A stretch of DNA of 25,481 nt from assembly GCA_964608295.1 (NCBI GenBank), contig CAZSOM010000001.1, positions 1 through 25,481 on the forward strand. The letters are read 5' to 3'. Shown here piece by piece: positions 1,225 through 7,337 of the stretch. Both the position numbers and the translations under genes were made by a program. This DNA is from an uncultured Candidatus Cloacimonadota bacterium (GTDB taxonomy: Bacteria > Cloacimonadota > Cloacimonadia > Cloacimonadales > TCS61). The notes beneath the pieces were generated by a model. That model did no database searches. It was given only the letters and a program-made list of their open reading frames with translations, and had not been told where the DNA came from. The first letter of the stretch is position 1; the number at the start of each line of letters is the position of its first letter.

Positions 1225-3021
1225 ATGAATAAATTATTTTTATTACTTTTGCTCATCGGACTTTTTGTTATCAGTTGTACCGATACTCTTGATAAAACAA
1301 CTAATCTTAACAGCAATCCCCGTATTGAATATTCTTCCTGTACCAGTTGTTATGAATGTGTTGATCTTTTCAACTGTCCCGAGAATGCGATCAAGTTGGA
1401 TAATCGAACACAAACCATGTACATTGATGCAGATCTCTGCACGGGATGTATGGATTGTATCAATCTGTTTTCCTGCCCGGATGATGCGTTTACAATTGAT
1501 GTAGACAATATAAAACCTGCTCAGATCAATGATGTCATTGCAGCATCAGACTCAATTGGGAAGATGAATATTCAATTTACTGCAACAGGTGATGATTCAA
1601 CTACAGGTAGAGCTTTCAAGTATGAACTGGTGCTTAAAGATTCTAATAATCAGATCATTGAGAATGATTTTATCACACCTTTACCGCAAAATGCCGGCGC
1701 AATTGAGAATTGGGATTTGGAGAATTTACCGGAAGACGAACTGGTGACTCTGGAGATTGAAGCATTCGATGAACTTGATCAAGTTTCTCTTCCAGCAATA
1801 CAAGAAGTACAGATCTTGGGTGAGATAATTGATGAAGAACCTCCCTGCTCAATTGATGATATAGCAGTCAGCTCTATGTCTATGAATTCGTTCCAGGTAA
1901 ATTGGACTGCACCCGGAGATGATGGTGATCTTGGAATTTCAAGCTATTATATTGTTAAAGTTCACACAGAAAATATTAATGATTCAAATTGGGAAATAAT
2001 AGAGGAATATGAGCAGAATATAGTTCCTCAAGAAGCAGGAAATGAAGAAGTTATAATCATCGTAAATCTTGATCCGGTTACGGAATATTTTGTCGGGATT
2101 AAAGCAGTTGATGAAGTTGAAAATATCTCTCAGCTTTCTAATATAGCACAAGCGGCAACAACAGCTATTCCAGACGAAACTTCTCCTTCTGCAATTACGG
2201 ATCTGCAGGCTGATCCTACTGACGAGTTGATCGAACTAACATGGACTGCAACTGGTGATGATGGAGATGAAGGAACAGCTTATAATTATGAGATCAGGAT
2301 TTCACAATCGGTAATTACATCAGGCAATTGGAGTGATGCTGAACTTCTGGAAGGTGCTCCCTGGCCTTTGGAATCAGGTTCATCTCAGAATTATACTGTA
2401 GAAGATCTGCAACTTGGGATCACCTATTATTTTGCGATCAAAGCATTTGATGAAAGTGATAATGTCTCTCCGCTTTCGAATGTTCCCGATGCAAGCTTAA
2501 TCAACGATATTACCGCACCGGCAGATATTACAGATCTGGTAGTTTATGAAGGTAGTACATCTAATTTAAGCACAATAAAGATCATGTGGACTGCACCGGG
2601 TGATGATGGATCGCAAGGAATTGCAAATCATTATGAGATCAGGTATTCAACTTCTTTGATCACAGCATCAAACTGGGGAAATGCCACTATCTTCAATGAT
2701 CCACCAGTACCACAAAATGCCGGAACTTCCCAATATTGTTATGTTAATGTGCTGGAAGCTGCAACGATCTACTATTTTGCCATTAAAGCTTATGATGAGA
2801 ATGGTAACGTAAATCAGGTTTCTAATTCACCGGCAGGCAAAATAGTCTTTCAGATCAATACAGGAGCATGTCGCAATTGCAGTAACTGTATTTATGATTG
2901 TAATTATGATGCCATCCTGCAGGGTCCCGGTTATAAATATATAGATCCTGATCTATGCCAGGCTTGTGGAGATTGCACCTGTCCCTGGAATTTAATCTAT
3001 AAAGCAGTTGTTGCATATTAG
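1225..3021 (+). CDS. Lipoprotein: 2x[4Fe-4S] domain, four fibronectin type III repeats, 2x[4Fe-4S] domain
   Basis: Lipobox-like VIS|C18. N-terminal CTSCYEC-x5-CP and CTGCMDC-x5-CP. Four ~110-aa repeats with (W/F)TA(P/T)GDD and (Y)xxxIxAxDE motifs. C-terminal CRNCSNCIYDC and CQACGDCTCP. Confidence 0.85.
   Translation: MNKLFLLLLLIGLFVISCTDTLDKTTNLNSNPRIEYSSCTSCYECVDLFNCPENAIKLDNRTQTMYIDADLCTGCMDCINLFSCPDDAFTIDVDNIKPAQINDVIAASDSIGKMNIQFTATGDDSTTGRAFKYELVLKDSNNQIIENDFITPLPQNAGAIENWDLENLPEDELVTLEIEAFDELDQVSLPAIQEVQILGEIIDEEPPCSIDDIAVSSMSMNSFQVNWTAPGDDGDLGISSYYIVKVHTENINDSNWEIIEEYEQNIVPQEAGNEEVIIIVNLDPVTEYFVGIKAVDEVENISQLSNIAQAATTAIPDETSPSAITDLQADPTDELIELTWTATGDDGDEGTAYNYEIRISQSVITSGNWSDAELLEGAPWPLESGSSQNYTVEDLQLGITYYFAIKAFDESDNVSPLSNVPDASLINDITAPADITDLVVYEGSTSNLSTIKIMWTAPGDDGSQGIANHYEIRYSTSLITASNWGNATIFNDPPVPQNAGTSQYCYVNVLEAATIYYFAIKAYDENGNVNQVSNSPAGKIVFQINTGACRNCSNCIYDCNYDAILQGPGYKYIDPDLCQACGDCTCPWNLIYKAVVAY
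1504..2840 (+). repeat. Four tandem FN3-like protein repeats (about 1504-1830, 1831-2172, 2173-2505, 2506-2840)
   Basis: Each repeat starts D-x-x-x-P-x-x-I-x-D and contains FTATGDDS / WTAPGDDG / WTATGDDG / WTAPGDDG and a terminal I(E/K)A(F/V/Y)DE strand. Confidence 0.85.
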
Positions 3022-3090: not shown

Positions 3091-3333
3091 ATGAAAAATA
3101 AAATAATAATAGTTATAATTATCTTAGCCGCAATTTCACTTTTCGCGATCTCCAAGAGTAATATTTTCGTAGAATCAAATTCTTGTATAGGTTGTGGAGA
3201 CTGTGTTAGTGTCTGTCCTGTAAATGCAATTGAAATAATTGATGGAAAAGCTGTTATCGATGCGGAATTATGTATAGATTGTGAAATCTGTATAACAAGT
3301 TGTACTTATAAAGCAATAAGGAAAAATAAATGA
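3091..3333 (+). CDS. Small 2x[4Fe-4S] ferredoxin with an N-terminal signal peptide or membrane anchor
   Basis: GAGGA RBS. MKNKIIIVIIILAAISLFA precedes CIGCGDCVSVCP and CIDCEICITSC. Confidence 0.88.
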   Translation: MKNKIIIVIIILAAISLFAISKSNIFVESNSCIGCGDCVSVCPVNAIEIIDGKAVIDAELCIDCEICITSCTYKAIRKNK

Positions 3334-3575
3334 AAAAAATAGGAATAATATTTTTCCTAATTGTGATCTTCGTAAGTATTATTAGCTGTGAAAAAGTGAG
3401 TAATCCTGAATATAATGTAGATAAAATAGCTTGTAATGCCTGTGGAAATTGTATTAATATCTGTCCGCAGGATGCAGTTGAAATCGGTGAAGACGGCAAG
3501 GCAATAATAGATCAAACTAAATGCAATCAGTGTGGTAAATGTATTACTGTCTGCCCGGAAGATGCTATCTATTAA
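3330..3575 (+). CDS. Small 2x[4Fe-4S] ferredoxin lipoprotein
   Basis: ATGA overlap with the previous gene. Signal MKKIGIIFFLIVIFVSIIS|C, then CNACGNCINICP and CNQCGKCITVCP. Confidence 0.88.
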   Translation: MKKIGIIFFLIVIFVSIISCEKVSNPEYNVDKIACNACGNCINICPQDAVEIGEDGKAIIDQTKCNQCGKCITVCPEDAIY

Positions 3576-3587
3576 AGTGTGAATGAT

Positions 3588-4466
3588 ATGAAGAAAATTT
3601 TAATAATACTTCTAATATCAATCTCATTTTCTCAAGGATTTTCTGAGGAAAAGCAAAATAATAACTTAGAAACAAAATCTAAAAACAAGTATTATAAAAT
3701 AGCCAGGTCATTATATCAAAAACCGTTTGGATCAACCTTATGTATACCATTTATCTGGTTAGGTGATTTAGCAGAAAATAAAAGAGTTAAATCTGATCTA
3801 TCCAACGAGCAAAAATTAGAAGATCCAGATCAACGAAGAAAATTCAACTTAACAAACTGGTCACAACTTTCTCTTAAATACTTCACTACGAATGCTGAGC
3901 ATGATATTGAAATAATCACTGGAGCTTCTCAAGATGCTGATAAAATAAAGGCTCAAGGTAAGTTTGGGCTGAATTATCAACATGAGGTAACAGGTAAGAT
4001 AAGTAAGAAACTTTCTTTTAATGTGAAGGATAATTTTTTCTTCTCTGAGAAAAGTCATGAGCGACGCAATTCATTTCTCACAAATGACCTGAAGCTAGGT
4101 TTTCTATATAATCATGAAACAACTTATCTTAACTTCAAATTGAATAATCGTTATTACGATCCAGATGAAACTAATTTCTTATCATTACCAGCCCTGGGGC
4201 AACATACACAACTAAAAATGGTTTCCAGTGCTGTTGTGCATTTAAAACAGAATTTTGGAAATCTGAACCTGAATGTTTATACGAACTTTAGGGATTTGCA
4301 GTATAGATATGTTGTTCCTATAGAAGAAGAGGATGATGAATATGACGCCCACAGAGCTAGAGATTATGATAGCTATACCGATTCTAAACTTTCTTATCCA
4401 ATCATGGATCATCTGAAGATTTTCGGGAGAGTATACTATAAAGACGAACTTAGGGGGAGGATTTGA
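3588..4466 (+). CDS. N-terminal part of a probable outer-membrane beta-barrel protein (frameshift-split)
   Basis: ATG 3588 gives signal peptide MKKILIILLISISFSQGFS. Alternating amphipathic strands follow (QGKFGLNYQHEV, TNDLKLGFLYN). The ORF ends just where the +1 frame becomes barrel-like. Confidence 0.6.
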   Translation: MKKILIILLISISFSQGFSEEKQNNNLETKSKNKYYKIARSLYQKPFGSTLCIPFIWLGDLAENKRVKSDLSNEQKLEDPDQRRKFNLTNWSQLSLKYFTTNAEHDIEIITGASQDADKIKAQGKFGLNYQHEVTGKISKKLSFNVKDNFFFSEKSHERRNSFLTNDLKLGFLYNHETTYLNFKLNNRYYDPDETNFLSLPALGQHTQLKMVSSAVVHLKQNFGNLNLNVYTNFRDLQYRYVVPIEEEDDEYDAHRARDYDSYTDSKLSYPIMDHLKIFGRVYYKDELRGRI

Positions 4467-4509
4467 ATATGACAATAACATTAATCTCTTCAGTTCTCTC
4501 AAAGCAAAA

Positions 4510-4992
4510 GTGCAATACTACAAAAGAATTTCTGCTAAGATCAATAATGAACAGGATCATAACCTGATCACACAATTGCGTTATTCAAGGAGATTCCGTA
4601 ATGGGATTTCCGGTTTTGTTTCCTATATAAACCGTTCTTGTTATGATGATGAAACTTCTCAAGTTTATCGTGTTTCTAATATGCTCAGAGTTCATACGAT
4701 GTATTCCTATGCACTTGAAAACCTTAATAACTCTTATGTCTTGGTTGGAATTAAATATAACCCTGAAAATGAAGGCTCGCTTGGTTTTATTGAACAAAAT
4801 CAGTATCTGGTCAAAGATATTTATTCAACTGTTGCTATAAAATATTCAGTTGATCTTTTTACTTCATACTCAGTGAAAATGGAATATTTCCTGAATTCAT
4901 TACAATCATTTTGGATCAAAGATGAATTTGTAGATTATTATAATATTCATACTCAGAATTTAATTTTCATTGGTTCTACAATAATATTTTAA
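4510..4992 (+). CDS. C-terminal part of the same beta-barrel (frame open from 4417; GTG 4510 is probably not a true start)
   Basis: The upstream in-frame sequence reads TNLGGGFEYDNNINLFSSLKAKVQYY. Amphipathic strands continue to a terminal Phe (GSTIIF*), typical of a BAM recognition signal. Confidence 0.6.
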   Translation: MQYYKRISAKINNEQDHNLITQLRYSRRFRNGISGFVSYINRSCYDDETSQVYRVSNMLRVHTMYSYALENLNNSYVLVGIKYNPENEGSLGFIEQNQYLVKDIYSTVAIKYSVDLFTSYSVKMEYFLNSLQSFWIKDEFVDYYNIHTQNLIFIGSTIIF

Positions 4993-5004: not shown

Positions 5005-5985
5005 ATGATAAAAACATTAATTGAAGGAGCAATTCTAGGGTTAACTACAGGAACAACATGCTTGATCACCTGTTCTCCTATCTACTTGCCTTATTTGATC
5101 TCTGAAGATAGAAAATTAGGTAAAAGCCTTTTGGCTGTTTTGGAGATCTCTGCTGGAAGGTTTATTTCCTATCTTGCTTTTGGCGCTATTGCTGGATATA
5201 CCGGAGCTCAAATTGCTTCAGTTAACCGTGAGTTGTTTACTTCGATTGCCTACATTTTACTCTCAGCTTATCTTGTGCTTTCTGCAGTAAGGACCAATAA
5301 AAAAACTAAAAGTTGTCATGTACCCAAAATGGCTAAATTCACTAAAAGCGGTTTTATCCTGGGGATTCTCACCGGTATAAATTTTTGTCCTTCCTTCTTG
5401 ATTGCACTCTCTAAAGCTGTAGATCTAGGTGGTGCTCTCAGTGGTATGATGCTGTTTATGGGATTTTTCTTTGGAACATCCATCTTCCTGCTGCCACTTG
5501 CCTTTATTGGTCAAATTTCTAAAGTCAGCAAAATGAAACTAATTGCCCAATATGCTTCAATTCTTGTTGCTATCTGGTTTACATTTGCTGGAGTTAAAGG
5601 GCTTATTCATTATCAGGAACATGTTAGATTGGAAGCTCAGCCAGCAAGATTAGTGGAAGCATTTAATCCAAATATACCGTTGGCTGTTGTTGCTTCAAAA
5701 GAAAATTCCGTTTATTTTACATCATTACAAGATTCCTTGAAGAAATACACACCGCAGGACGTTCATTATTTTCAATATCATAAATCAGTACTTGATTCTT
5801 TGAATAAATTTCAAGAAATTGTCTTGGTTATAGACTCCACAATTTTAAATGAGAGTTTCGATAACTATGATTACTTCCAGGTTGAACCGGATTATAATTT
5901 ACCCAGAATGCTAAAATTTATGAAATTCTATACATTCAAAACAAGAACTCATCTGCACTGGGAATTTATTGAAAAAGAAAAATAG
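5005..5985 (+). CDS. DsbD_2 / TauE-SafE-like (CcdA-like) membrane thiol protein with a C-terminal soluble extension
   Basis: About six hydrophobic helices with intramembrane Cys motifs GTTCLITCSP and GINFCP, GR motif in TM2, and a ~120-aa hydrophilic tail. Confidence 0.72.
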   Translation: MIKTLIEGAILGLTTGTTCLITCSPIYLPYLISEDRKLGKSLLAVLEISAGRFISYLAFGAIAGYTGAQIASVNRELFTSIAYILLSAYLVLSAVRTNKKTKSCHVPKMAKFTKSGFILGILTGINFCPSFLIALSKAVDLGGALSGMMLFMGFFFGTSIFLLPLAFIGQISKVSKMKLIAQYASILVAIWFTFAGVKGLIHYQEHVRLEAQPARLVEAFNPNIPLAVVASKENSVYFTSLQDSLKKYTPQDVHYFQYHKSVLDSLNKFQEIVLVIDSTILNESFDNYDYFQVEPDYNLPRMLKFMKFYTFKTRTHLHWEFIEKEK

Positions 5986-6172: not shown

Positions 6173-6191
6173 TCTTCTCATGAGGAAAGTT

Positions 6192-7337
6192 ATGAAATTA
6201 AAATTCGTATTCTTACTAATTATGGGATTATCATTCTTAAATGCGAAACCAGTAGATAAATCTATAACGCTTGGAATTTTCTATCCCTGGTCCACAAACA
6301 AATCCAAACTGGAATCTACTAATTTTAACTTATCTCTTTTTCAAAATAGTGTAGGCAATGTTGAAGGTGCCAGCATTTCAGGATTCTCAGCAATCTGTAA
6401 TGGCAGTGTAAATGGAATTCAGGCATCACTTCTATATTCCCAGATTAATAAAGATCTACAGGGCATCTCGTTCTCCACTGTGAATGTGGTGAACCAAAGC
6501 ATTTTGGGTGTTCAAGCCGGGATTGCATTCAACCTTTTGGGAAAAAGTTTTTCCGGATATCAGGTCGTAGGAGCGATGAATTTTGTGGGTGGATATTTCA
6601 GGGGAATGCAACAGTCTGCTGTTTTTAATATTGTAGGAAGAGATTTTTACGGGCTGCAGTCAGCCGTAGTCGGGAACGTTGTAGGTGGTGGTTTTAAAGG
6701 CGCTCAGTTTGGAACAACTTTCAATTTTGTTGCACGTAAAATGTCTGGTCTCCAAACCGCAAGTTTGAATGTGTGCGCAGAGCTTAAGGGTGTTCAATTG
6801 GGCATTGGGAACATCACCCAGTTAAATCGGGGTTGGCAGATCGGATTGATGAATCTCGCGGAGCAACAAGAAGGTGTACCAATTGGACTTATTAATATTT
6901 CGGATGATGGAAATATCCGCTGGCAGAACTACATCAGTAATTTTGCTGGTTTTGTTACTGCTATCCGGTTTGAATCCAATAATTTTGTTTCCAGTTTGGA
7001 AATAGGAGCACCCAATTTAGAATCTGAAATTGAAGAATCTGTTTTGTTCGGGTTTCATTACGGTTATAGAGTTCCCTGGAAAAGATTAGGATTTGAGACC
7101 GATTTCGGTTTCTTCCATGTAATTTATGAACCCGATAATGAAGAGAGTGATATTCCCAATAGTTTTGCGCTACAACTGCGTTTTTCCTGTTCTTTACGTA
7201 TAACTGAGAATGTTTCAATTTTCGGAGGAATCGGGGGTTCCACCATGGCTGACTATCCTGATTTGGATGATGAGGACGCAGAAACAGTAACTTCGGAAGA
7301 TAGGCTACTCTATTTCTGTGGAATAAATCTATTTTGA
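6192..7337 (+). CDS. LA_2272-type surface-repeat protein (beta-solenoid) with a probable C-terminal beta-barrel
   Basis: GAGGA RBS favours ATG 6192. Signal peptide, then tandem 14-16-aa G-x-Q-x4/5-N repeats. The C-terminal amphipathic strands end CGINLF*. Confidence 0.75.
   Translation: MKLKFVFLLIMGLSFLNAKPVDKSITLGIFYPWSTNKSKLESTNFNLSLFQNSVGNVEGASISGFSAICNGSVNGIQASLLYSQINKDLQGISFSTVNVVNQSILGVQAGIAFNLLGKSFSGYQVVGAMNFVGGYFRGMQQSAVFNIVGRDFYGLQSAVVGNVVGGGFKGAQFGTTFNFVARKMSGLQTASLNVCAELKGVQLGIGNITQLNRGWQIGLMNLAEQQEGVPIGLINISDDGNIRWQNYISNFAGFVTAIRFESNNFVSSLEIGAPNLESEIEESVLFGFHYGYRVPWKRLGFETDFGFFHVIYEPDNEESDIPNSFALQLRFSCSLRITENVSIFGGIGGSTMADYPDLDDEDAETVTSEDRLLYFCGINLF
6507..6896 (+). repeat. G-x-Q-x4/5-N protein repeats (five of 16 aa, then 14-aa units)
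   Basis: GVQAGIAFNLLGKSFS / GYQVVGAMNFVGGYFR / GMQQSAVFNIVGRDFY / GLQSAVVGNVVGGGFK / GAQFGTTFNFVARKMS / GLQTASLNVCAELK / GVQLGIGNITQLNR / GWQIGLMNLAEQQE / GVPIGLIN. Confidence 0.85.

Follow-up and report, generated by a model that had tools for sequence, protein, structure and literature searches.

To our knowledge, all characterized trans-envelope electron routes of Gram-negative bacteria use multiheme cytochromes, and every periplasmic Fe-S protein known so far is exported in the folded state via the twin-arginine translocation (Tat) system. Flavin-based electron routes are known from Gram-positive bacteria; in the Listeria locus of this kind, the surface lipoprotein PplA carries covalent flavin mononucleotide (FMN) in two FMN-binding domains, is loaded extracellularly by FmnB, and acts as the last protein-bound carrier. 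Here, we analyze a gene for a predicted lipoprotein that bears a ferredoxin-type module at each end of a stalk of fibronectin type III (FN3) domains. It is located at positions 1225 to 3021 of the + strand in a 25,481-nucleotide stretch of DNA (the window) from the metagenome-assembled genome (MAG) of an uncultured Candidatus Cloacimonadota bacterium (contig CAZSOM010000001.1, assembly GCA_964608295.1), and its 598-amino-acid product is referred to as P0001. The architecture of P0001 is conserved and apparently undescribed: its parts (Fer4, FN3, and lipobox) are known, but their combination, genomic context, and export route are not. In our best reading, P0001 is the lipid-anchored, two-headed ferredoxin of a gene cassette that constitutes a heme-free Fe-S electron-transfer set specific to some Cloacimonadota.

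The porin-cytochrome conduits, namely, MtrCAB of Shewanella and the OmbB-OmaB-OmcB (Pcc) conduit of Geobacter, resemble this cassette in that a dedicated outer-membrane barrel is found beside periplasmic and lipoprotein redox carriers without an identified catalytic subunit. Geobacter OmbB is predicted to have 20 trans-outer-membrane motifs (PMC4282303), and the barrel of the cassette was modeled with the same number of strands. However, the conduits need CXXCH cytochromes and the corresponding maturation machinery, whereas CXXCH is absent from P0001 and none of five cassette-bearing genomes gave a match to the CcsA/CcmF family (PF01578); the cofactors of the cassette would be [4Fe-4S] clusters and not heme. 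Furthermore, P0001 differs from the lipoproteins of these conduits in that its two redox modules are terminal, with an insulating FN3 stalk between them, instead of forming a continuous cofactor chain, and no sequence homology of the cassette proteins to Mtr or Pcc proteins was detected.

The NapGH, MauMN, and NosGH modules show another likeness, since these, like the cassette, combine extracytoplasmic ferredoxins with a NapH-like polyferredoxin, which in the cassette has the Fer4_5 domain, two CX3CP motifs, and a dicluster domain at its C terminus. In contrast to these modules, the NapH-like protein of the cassette scores far below the family cutoff (65 versus 213 bits), its partners carry Sec or lipoprotein signals instead of twin-arginine signals, TatC is rare in the phylum (1 of 80 genomes), the cassette encodes no terminal reductase, and the FN3 stalk has no counterpart. 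P0001 and PplA are alike as lipid-anchored extracytoplasmic proteins with two small redox modules. In P0001, these modules are of the ferredoxin type and are separated in the family by 3 to 14 FN3 units, and no FMN-binding domain was among its Pfam matches, which sets it apart from the PplA type. Both heads align with clostridial-type 2x[4Fe-4S] ferredoxins (9g03_E, 1clf, and 1fca) over all eight ligand Cys residues, but the latter are soluble cytoplasmic proteins of 55 to 80 amino acids, whereas the heads of P0001 are predicted to be exported and lipid anchored, are fused to FN3 domains, and are altered in their Cys spacing. P0001 appears to belong among the trans-envelope electron carriers, with a substantial chance that it is something categorically new.

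Architecture and conservation of P0001

The translated sequence of P0001 starts with M-N-K, followed by a hydrophobic run and V-I-S-C18, and contains no twin-arginine motif. It thus has the positive n-region, the h-region, and the lipobox Cys of a signal peptidase II (SPase II) substrate and is predicted to be lipidated. The Sec/SPase II signal peptide (amino acids 1 to 17) and Cys18 (codon 1276 to 1278) are encoded at positions 1225 to 1278, and the N-terminal dicluster ferredoxin, i.e., the proximal head FdN (amino acids 33 to 94), is encoded at 1321 to 1506. Then follow four FN3 repeats, covering amino acids 95 to 203 (positions 1507 to 1833; net charge of -17), 204 to 314 (1834 to 2166; -19), 315 to 425 (2167 to 2499; -20), and 426 to 538 (2500 to 2838; -8). 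The C-terminal dicluster ferredoxin, i.e., the distal head FdC (amino acids 539 to 598), is encoded at 2839 to 3018, or to 3021 with the stop codon. All these features are on the + strand. The mature protein has a computed isoelectric point of ~4.05 and a net charge of -75. A first-pass annotation made from the sequence alone had proposed this order of lipobox, ferredoxin end, four acidic FN3 domains, and second ferredoxin end; the translation, Pfam, PDB and Foldseek matches, and conservation all support it, and its boundaries were correct to within a few codons. It had also stated that the architecture was not recognizable as a known one, in agreement with the lack of an NCBIfam family above cutoff and its absence from the literature searched. 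Neither P0001 nor the cassette is described in the papers returned by full-text searches, which covered the architecture, ferredoxins that are exported, periplasmic, or extracellular, and Fe-S export independent of Tat, and two Cloacimonadota genome papers searched for the terms fibronectin, 4Fe-4S, NapH/polyferredoxin, cytochrome, and extracellular electron do not mention the architecture.

The assignment of the two heads is based on family profiles, structure database matches, and Cys invariance. FdN scored above the Pfam gathering scores of Fer4_6 (42.0 versus 25), Fer4_10 (34.7 versus 25.5), and Fer4_7 (33.2 versus 27), and its sequence matched the Fe-S subunit of aldehyde oxidoreductase (AOR; PDB 8c0z_C; E value of 5e-6) as well as RnfB. 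Its Cys residues C39, C42, C45, and C51 and C72, C75, C78, and C84 form two C-x2-C-x2-C-x5-C motifs, in which the x5 spacing, common to the whole family, departs from the canonical x3. FdC was below the cutoffs of Pfam Fer4 (19.8 versus 21.1; match at amino acids 572 to 584) and of NCBIfam FdxA_fam (34.2 versus 65), but the C-terminal 63 amino acids matched clostridial-type 2x[4Fe-4S] ferredoxins across both motifs (9g03_E, E value of 1.1e-5; also 1bqx). Its ligands are C549, C552, C555, and C559 and C578, C581, C584, and C586, the last followed by P587, and the domain ends in a conserved V-V-A-Y. As compared to 9g03_E, two residues are deleted ahead of the last Cys, resulting in C-x2-C-x2-C-x-C-P. 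The spacing of the third and fourth Cys of FdC varies in the family among x1, x2, and x3, and distant orthologues have two canonical C-x2-C-x2-C-x3-C-P motifs. Each head therefore contains the eight invariant Cys residues of a 2x[4Fe-4S] ferredoxin domain, although with variant spacing (x5 twice in FdN; x3 and x1 in FdC). A constant ligand set combined with variable loops is the pattern expected of a cluster-binding module, and both heads are predicted by homology to be occupied by Fe-S clusters.

The fn3 profile matched P0001 with a score of 68.1 (Pfam cutoff of 25), covering repeats 2 to 4, and the four units could be aligned to one another, the first being the most divergent. In the AlphaFold2 model, the region of amino acids 95 to 538 had a predicted local distance difference test (pLDDT) score of 85 to 95, with interdomain linkers at ~80 to 85, and its best Foldseek match was the tandem FN3 domains 1 to 4 of LAR (E value of 2e-16). 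The PF00041 score and the seven-strand beta-sandwich fold both identify the units as FN3 domains. An AlphaFold model had been suggested in the first-pass annotation as a check on the distance between the heads; it supports the individual FN3 units, but the predicted template modeling score (pTM) of the whole protein was 0.42, so that the model holds no information on rod geometry. FN3 units are ~3.5 to 4 nm long and cofactor-free, and electron tunneling needs distances of ~1.4 nm or less. The heads of an extended molecule can therefore not exchange electrons directly, and the earlier argument to this effect, which rests on textbook distances, is sound.

The number of FN3 units differs largely within the family. 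Among 113 full-length two-headed members, we counted 3 (2 members), 4 (39), 5 (23), 6 (36), 7 (2), 8 (10), and 14 units (1). The longest of these (L035:9001-14136; 1,720 amino acids), from a Cloacimonadota MAG, has ~14 units between its heads; open frames of 1,521 and 1,726 amino acids were seen in other genomes. Such variation between lineages (3 to 14 units) speaks against a wire or ruler of fixed length and favors a tether that sets the reach or a swinging arm, two of the three roles that the first-pass annotation had suggested, the third being a scaffold on which the small ferredoxins dock. A hairpin model that unites both heads was not adopted, as odd numbers of FN3 units are common (27 of 113). 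The rods of the 113 members are uniformly acidic (-13.6 ± 2.3 charges per 100 amino acids) and within the lowest ~2% among long open reading frames (ORFs) of the MAG, whereas FN3 homologues without ferredoxin ends are half as acidic (-6.1 ± 2.2). Many of the latter are surface proteins from other phyla that are sorted by the type IX secretion system (T9SS), and broad homology searches (representative library and ESM Atlas) were dominated by the FN3 repeats of giant surface proteins.

A word-indexed search retrieved hundreds of relatives; those with both Cys-rich ends were, where named, Candidatus Cloacimonadota or Cloacimonetes, and nearly all of the 113 full-length members are labeled Cloacimonadota. 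In 24 four-FN3 orthologues (47 to 87% identity), Cys18, Asp20, and all 16 ferredoxin Cys residues are invariant; across 24 members at 36 to 88% identity, the same applies to the nine N-terminal Cys residues, R33, E35, F49, P52, and the I67-D68 pair. The ratios of nonsynonymous to synonymous substitution rates (dN/dS) versus seven orthologues were 0.09 to 0.13 overall, 0.10 to 0.16 for the rod, and 0.02 to 0.07 for FdC, the lowest of the gene, and are rough values because dS is saturated. The P0001 gene is under purifying selection, which is strongest on FdC. A scan of one genome per species yielded 35 related loci, all from Cloacimonadota MAGs with the exception of two labeled Armatimonadota and Delongbacteria. 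They originate from Ace Lake (Tenebribacter), the Black Sea, Guaymas, Laguna El Tobar, and similar anoxic settings, and the window's own population is present in marine and marine-sediment metagenomes.

The conserved gene cassette

The core order FN3-ferredoxin, 80-residue ferredoxin, 81-residue ferredoxin, barrel, and DsbD_2 protein is shared by nearly all of the 38 loci compared, of which 3 are on long contigs and 35 come from the genome scan. In about half of the loci, including the window, the genes for a NapH-like Fer4_5 protein and a secreted ferredoxin of ~180 amino acids are found upstream of this core. All cassette genes of the window are on the + strand. The NapH/MauN-like membrane polyferredoxin (positions 3 to 626; Pfam Fer4_5, 4e-17) is cut by the 5' end of the window and is followed by the secreted 180-amino-acid protein with a C-terminal ferredoxin domain (655 to 1197); both are assigned by Pfam, the latter to Fer4, and by synteny. 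Downstream of the P0001 gene, and directly after its counterpart in nearly all loci, is the gene for the 80-amino-acid 2x[4Fe-4S] ferredoxin, which has a signal or anchor of the Sec type (3091 to 3333; Pfam Fer4 families, 1e-13). It is followed by that for the 81-amino-acid 2x[4Fe-4S] ferredoxin, which has the lipobox I-I-S-C (3330 to 3575; Pfam and synteny). The barrel gene (3579 to 4992) is split into two ORFs, and the core ends with the DsbD_2 membrane protein (CcdA-like, also named "TauE-SafE"; 5005 to 5985; Pfam DsbD_2, 3.5e-19), which has a C-terminal soluble domain. With Pfam and NCBIfam, the seven cassette proteins gave only Fer4, fn3, Fer4_5, and DsbD_2 modules; none matched an NCBIfam family above its cutoff, the barrel had no match, and no catalytic subunit was identified.

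The NapH-like protein scored 65 bits against NCBIfam TIGR02163 (napH_; cutoff of 213.05), a lower bound since the window copy lacks its 5' end. Its full-length orthologue (L016:7401-8222) contains two CX3CP motifs and a C-terminal dicluster domain, and a topology drawn by hand places four helices in the membrane and the dicluster domain in the cytoplasm. Three invariant Cys residues of the L016 protein (47, 53, and 153) are on predicted periplasmic loops and could provide a cluster site on the outer face. As to the DsbD_2 protein, those of its 120 best homologues whose source names a taxon are all from Cloacimonadota or Cloacimonetes, except for one with a Delongbacteria label, and their sources annotate them as TauE/SafE-type exporters. 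The lack of a CcsA/CcmF-type gene in the five cassette genomes argues that this protein is not there for cytochrome c maturation. In the lineage with eight FN3 units (L038, L039, L043, and L044; P0395, P0399, P0402, and P0409), it has ~455 amino acids instead of the usual ~330 and thus an extra domain.

The barrel proteins (365 to 481 amino acids; 40 clusters) belong to no Pfam family, and their taxon-naming sources are all Cloacimonadota or Cloacimonetes. The intact orthologue P0250 was modeled as a 20-strand barrel with an aromatic C-terminal residue (pLDDT of 78; pTM of 0.69), and its Foldseek matches were generic outer-membrane barrels, such as the OprD family and TonB-dependent receptors, with MtrB at rank 33. 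In the window, the gene is divided into the ORFs 3579 to 4466 and 4510 to 4992. Related contigs from two other studies contain 32 additional nucleotides, composed of 21 nucleotides and a second copy of the 11-nucleotide repeat at 4442 to 4452, with which the gene reads as a single ORF in line with the family consensus. The 32 nucleotides are also lacking in an independent assembly of the sample from which the window derives. These data contradict the first-pass explanation of the split by one extra G in a G5 run, which was rejected. The cassette may thus be decaying in the window's population, with the FN3-ferredoxin gene itself intact.

Export, putative cofactor loading, and possible function

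P0001 has no twin-arginine signal, and TatC (PF00902) was not found in the MAG, which is 73% complete, so that the protein does not fall into the class of Tat-exported periplasmic Fe-S proteins such as NapG, NrfC, HybA, and DmsB. Tat seems absent from the phylum, as does cytochrome c maturation, judged from the five cassette genomes. Given Sec/SPase II signals and apparently no Tat system, the heads, if they bind Fe-S clusters, would be loaded after export. Apo-ferredoxins reconstitute spontaneously in vitro with Fe(II), sulfide, and a thiol, and the habitats of the cassette carriers are anoxic and sulfidic. Among the signal-bearing ORFs of the MAG, a canonical ferredoxin motif is present only in those of the cassette; a T9SS-tailed ferredoxin was also sought in the MAG, and no signal-bearing canonical ferredoxin ORF was found outside the cassette. 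The 2.1-Mb assembly encodes ~80 proteins with the T9SS C-terminal sorting domain (PF18962 above cutoff) and thus a very large surface proteome. In a search for an acidic lipoprotein export signal like that of Bacteroidota, at least two acidic residues at positions +2 to +6 after the lipobox Cys were present in 12 of 63 candidate lipoproteins of the MAG, including P0001, without a clear consensus.

We favor, with a probability of about 0.4, a heme-free electron route outside the cytoplasm, with the distal ferredoxin head serving as a mobile carrier on a tether. FdN, 15 residues past the lipid anchor, would be at the membrane and exchange electrons with the small ferredoxins, the barrel, or inner-membrane modules. 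FdC would be borne on an acidic FN3 tether of lineage-specific length, which at ~3.5 nm per FN3 unit would amount to ~14 nm here and up to ~50 nm in relatives. Since the FN3 units are cofactor-free, no tunneling would occur along the stalk; FdC would be loaded near the membrane and then, by chain motion in the manner of a swinging arm or "fishing rod," pass its electrons on to a partner that it can reach, which might be a mineral, sulfur species, humics, or another cell. Electron flow in the opposite direction would also be possible. Cluster insertion would follow Sec export, and the DsbD_2 protein might supply thiol or metal for it. Being polyanionic, the stalk would stand off from the likewise anionic envelope and might attach to cations or to Fe(III) oxide surfaces with a positive charge. 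We infer the cellular location of P0001 (periplasm or cell surface), the direction of electron flow, and the mobility of the tether from the sequence-based data described above.

A number of observations support this tethered-carrier model. (i) Both ends are homologous to 2x[4Fe-4S] ferredoxins, and their 16 ligand Cys residues are invariant. (ii) The gene has a low dN/dS, its synteny is conserved, and no catalytic subunit was identified in the cassette. (iii) The barrel is modeled with 20 strands, the number predicted for OmbB. (iv) The absence of CcsA/CcmF-type genes from the five cassette genomes and of CXXCH from P0001 is in favor of a heme-free route. (v) The FN3 number is variable, and the rods are twice as acidic as those of relatives without heads. 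(vi) FN3 relatives without ferredoxin ends are often T9SS-sorted surface proteins, and signal-bearing canonical ferredoxins are confined to the cassette in the MAG. In a further-reaching form, which we regard as doubtful, some Cloacimonadota would possess a cytochrome-free, all-Fe-S route from the cytoplasmic membrane to the exterior, whose ferredoxins leave the cytoplasm unfolded via Sec and acquire their clusters only afterwards and whose last carrier is a head swinging on an acidic FN3 tether of tunable length toward minerals, sulfur species, or syntrophic partners. Such a route, if true, would represent a novel class of extracellular electron transfer as well as the first case of Fe-S cluster assembly beyond the cytoplasm. 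If functional, the cassette would imply that exported proteins can be loaded with Fe-S clusters after they have left the cytoplasm and would provide fermenting or syntrophic anaerobes of sulfidic sediments with an unrecognized means for the disposal or uptake of low-potential electrons. P0001 is its most testable piece, since the heads are small and expressible and the natural series of 3 to 14 FN3 units would allow reach to be compared with function.

Several findings weigh against the tethered-carrier model. Only 1 of the 80 genomes of the phylum with a completeness of at least 90% yielded TatC (PF00902), which is missing from the other 79, all four exported ferredoxin-type proteins of the cassette have Sec or SPase II signals, and we know of no in vivo route for loading clusters outside the cytoplasm. 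Both heads were modeled by AlphaFold2 with a pLDDT of only ~50, and in the second motif of FdC, only one residue lies between the third Cys and the fourth. The barrel gene is broken in the MAG of the window by the 32-nucleotide deletion. Finally, the N-terminal 205 amino acids of P0001 were found in 12 to 14 of 81 sampled genomes of the phylum (5 of 10 genomes in family f1, 4 of 4 in f2, up to 4 of 8 in f11, and 0 of 37 in f3), indicating that the P0001 family is dispensable.

Other explanations were considered in the light of the same data. P0001 might be a static scaffold or ruler across the periplasm, with its heads docked at the inner-membrane module (NapH-like protein and secreted ferredoxin) and at the outer-membrane barrel, while the small ferredoxins diffuse as the real carriers. 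With four to six FN3 units, as in 98 of the 113 members, two heads, and a linker, it would measure ~20 to 30 nm, near the typical width of the periplasm; the two mini-ferredoxins are always coencoded, and the pLDDT of the interdomain linkers (~80 to 85) also agrees with a rod of this kind. However, the forms with 8 and 14 FN3 units far exceed any known periplasm, the NapH-like gene is not beside the core in about half of the loci, and a role as a spacer alone leaves the extreme, conserved acidity unexplained. We consider a scaffold unlikely. Uptake of iron instead of a redox chain, by which the apo-ferredoxin-like heads scavenge aqueous FeS clusters or Fe(II) that then pass via the barrel and small carriers to the DsbD_2-type permease, appears improbable: the NapH-like polyferredoxin with its dicluster domain, cytoplasmic in the hand-drawn topology, is better suited to electron transfer, and the small proteins retain canonical low-potential ferredoxin motifs. 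Ferredoxin import for iron has a precedent in the Fus system of Pectobacterium (PMC6042079), but no TonB-box receptor, ABC importer, or protease family as in Fus was matched in the cassette by Pfam or NCBIfam. Such an uptake function would be in accordance with the combination of a barrel, small soluble binders, and a permease-like membrane protein (annotated by its sources as a TauE/SafE-type exporter), with an acidic stalk that could bind cations, and with the origin of all related records from anoxic or sulfidic marine and lake settings.

We also find it hardly probable that P0001 is a nonredox surface protein, i.e., an acidic FN3 adhesin or capsule-like fibril whose Cys-rich ends are Zn or disulfide caps that resemble ferredoxins by ancestry only. 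Exactly eight Cys residues are maintained per head despite the loop variation, distant orthologues are fully canonical including the Cys-Pro, and the heads match solved ferredoxins with E values of ~1e-5. In addition, the neighboring genes all encode ferredoxin-type proteins or thiol/metal membrane proteins, and structural disulfides are improbable in the carriers, which are strictly anaerobic. What this explanation would account for is the lack of a Tat route for folded Fe-S proteins, the off-canon Cys spacing (x5 in FdN and x1 in FdC), the low AlphaFold2 confidence in both heads, and the frequency of this FN3 subtype among adhesin-like giant surface proteins.

Variants and flanks of the cassette

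In one locus (L030:1-5628), the order is permuted to mini-ferredoxins, barrel, secreted ferredoxin, FN3-ferredoxin, and DsbD_2, which indicates that the cassette genes travel as a set whose order is not fixed. Another locus has a further Fer4 protein added to the cassette. In the 3.96-Mb genome L007, a thioredoxin gene is found after the cassette (L007:14919-15266), and genes for a DUF1573/rhodanese-domain protein and a B12-binding radical SAM protein precede it (L007:7513-8310); these flanking genes may encode partners in thiol or sulfur handling. In the window, the region directly 3' of the cassette (6180 to 7337) encodes a secreted protein of 385 amino acids, which was below the cutoff of VC2662_fam (32.3 versus 140) and matched the LA_2272 surface-repeat domain with 31.2 bits (cutoff of 25).

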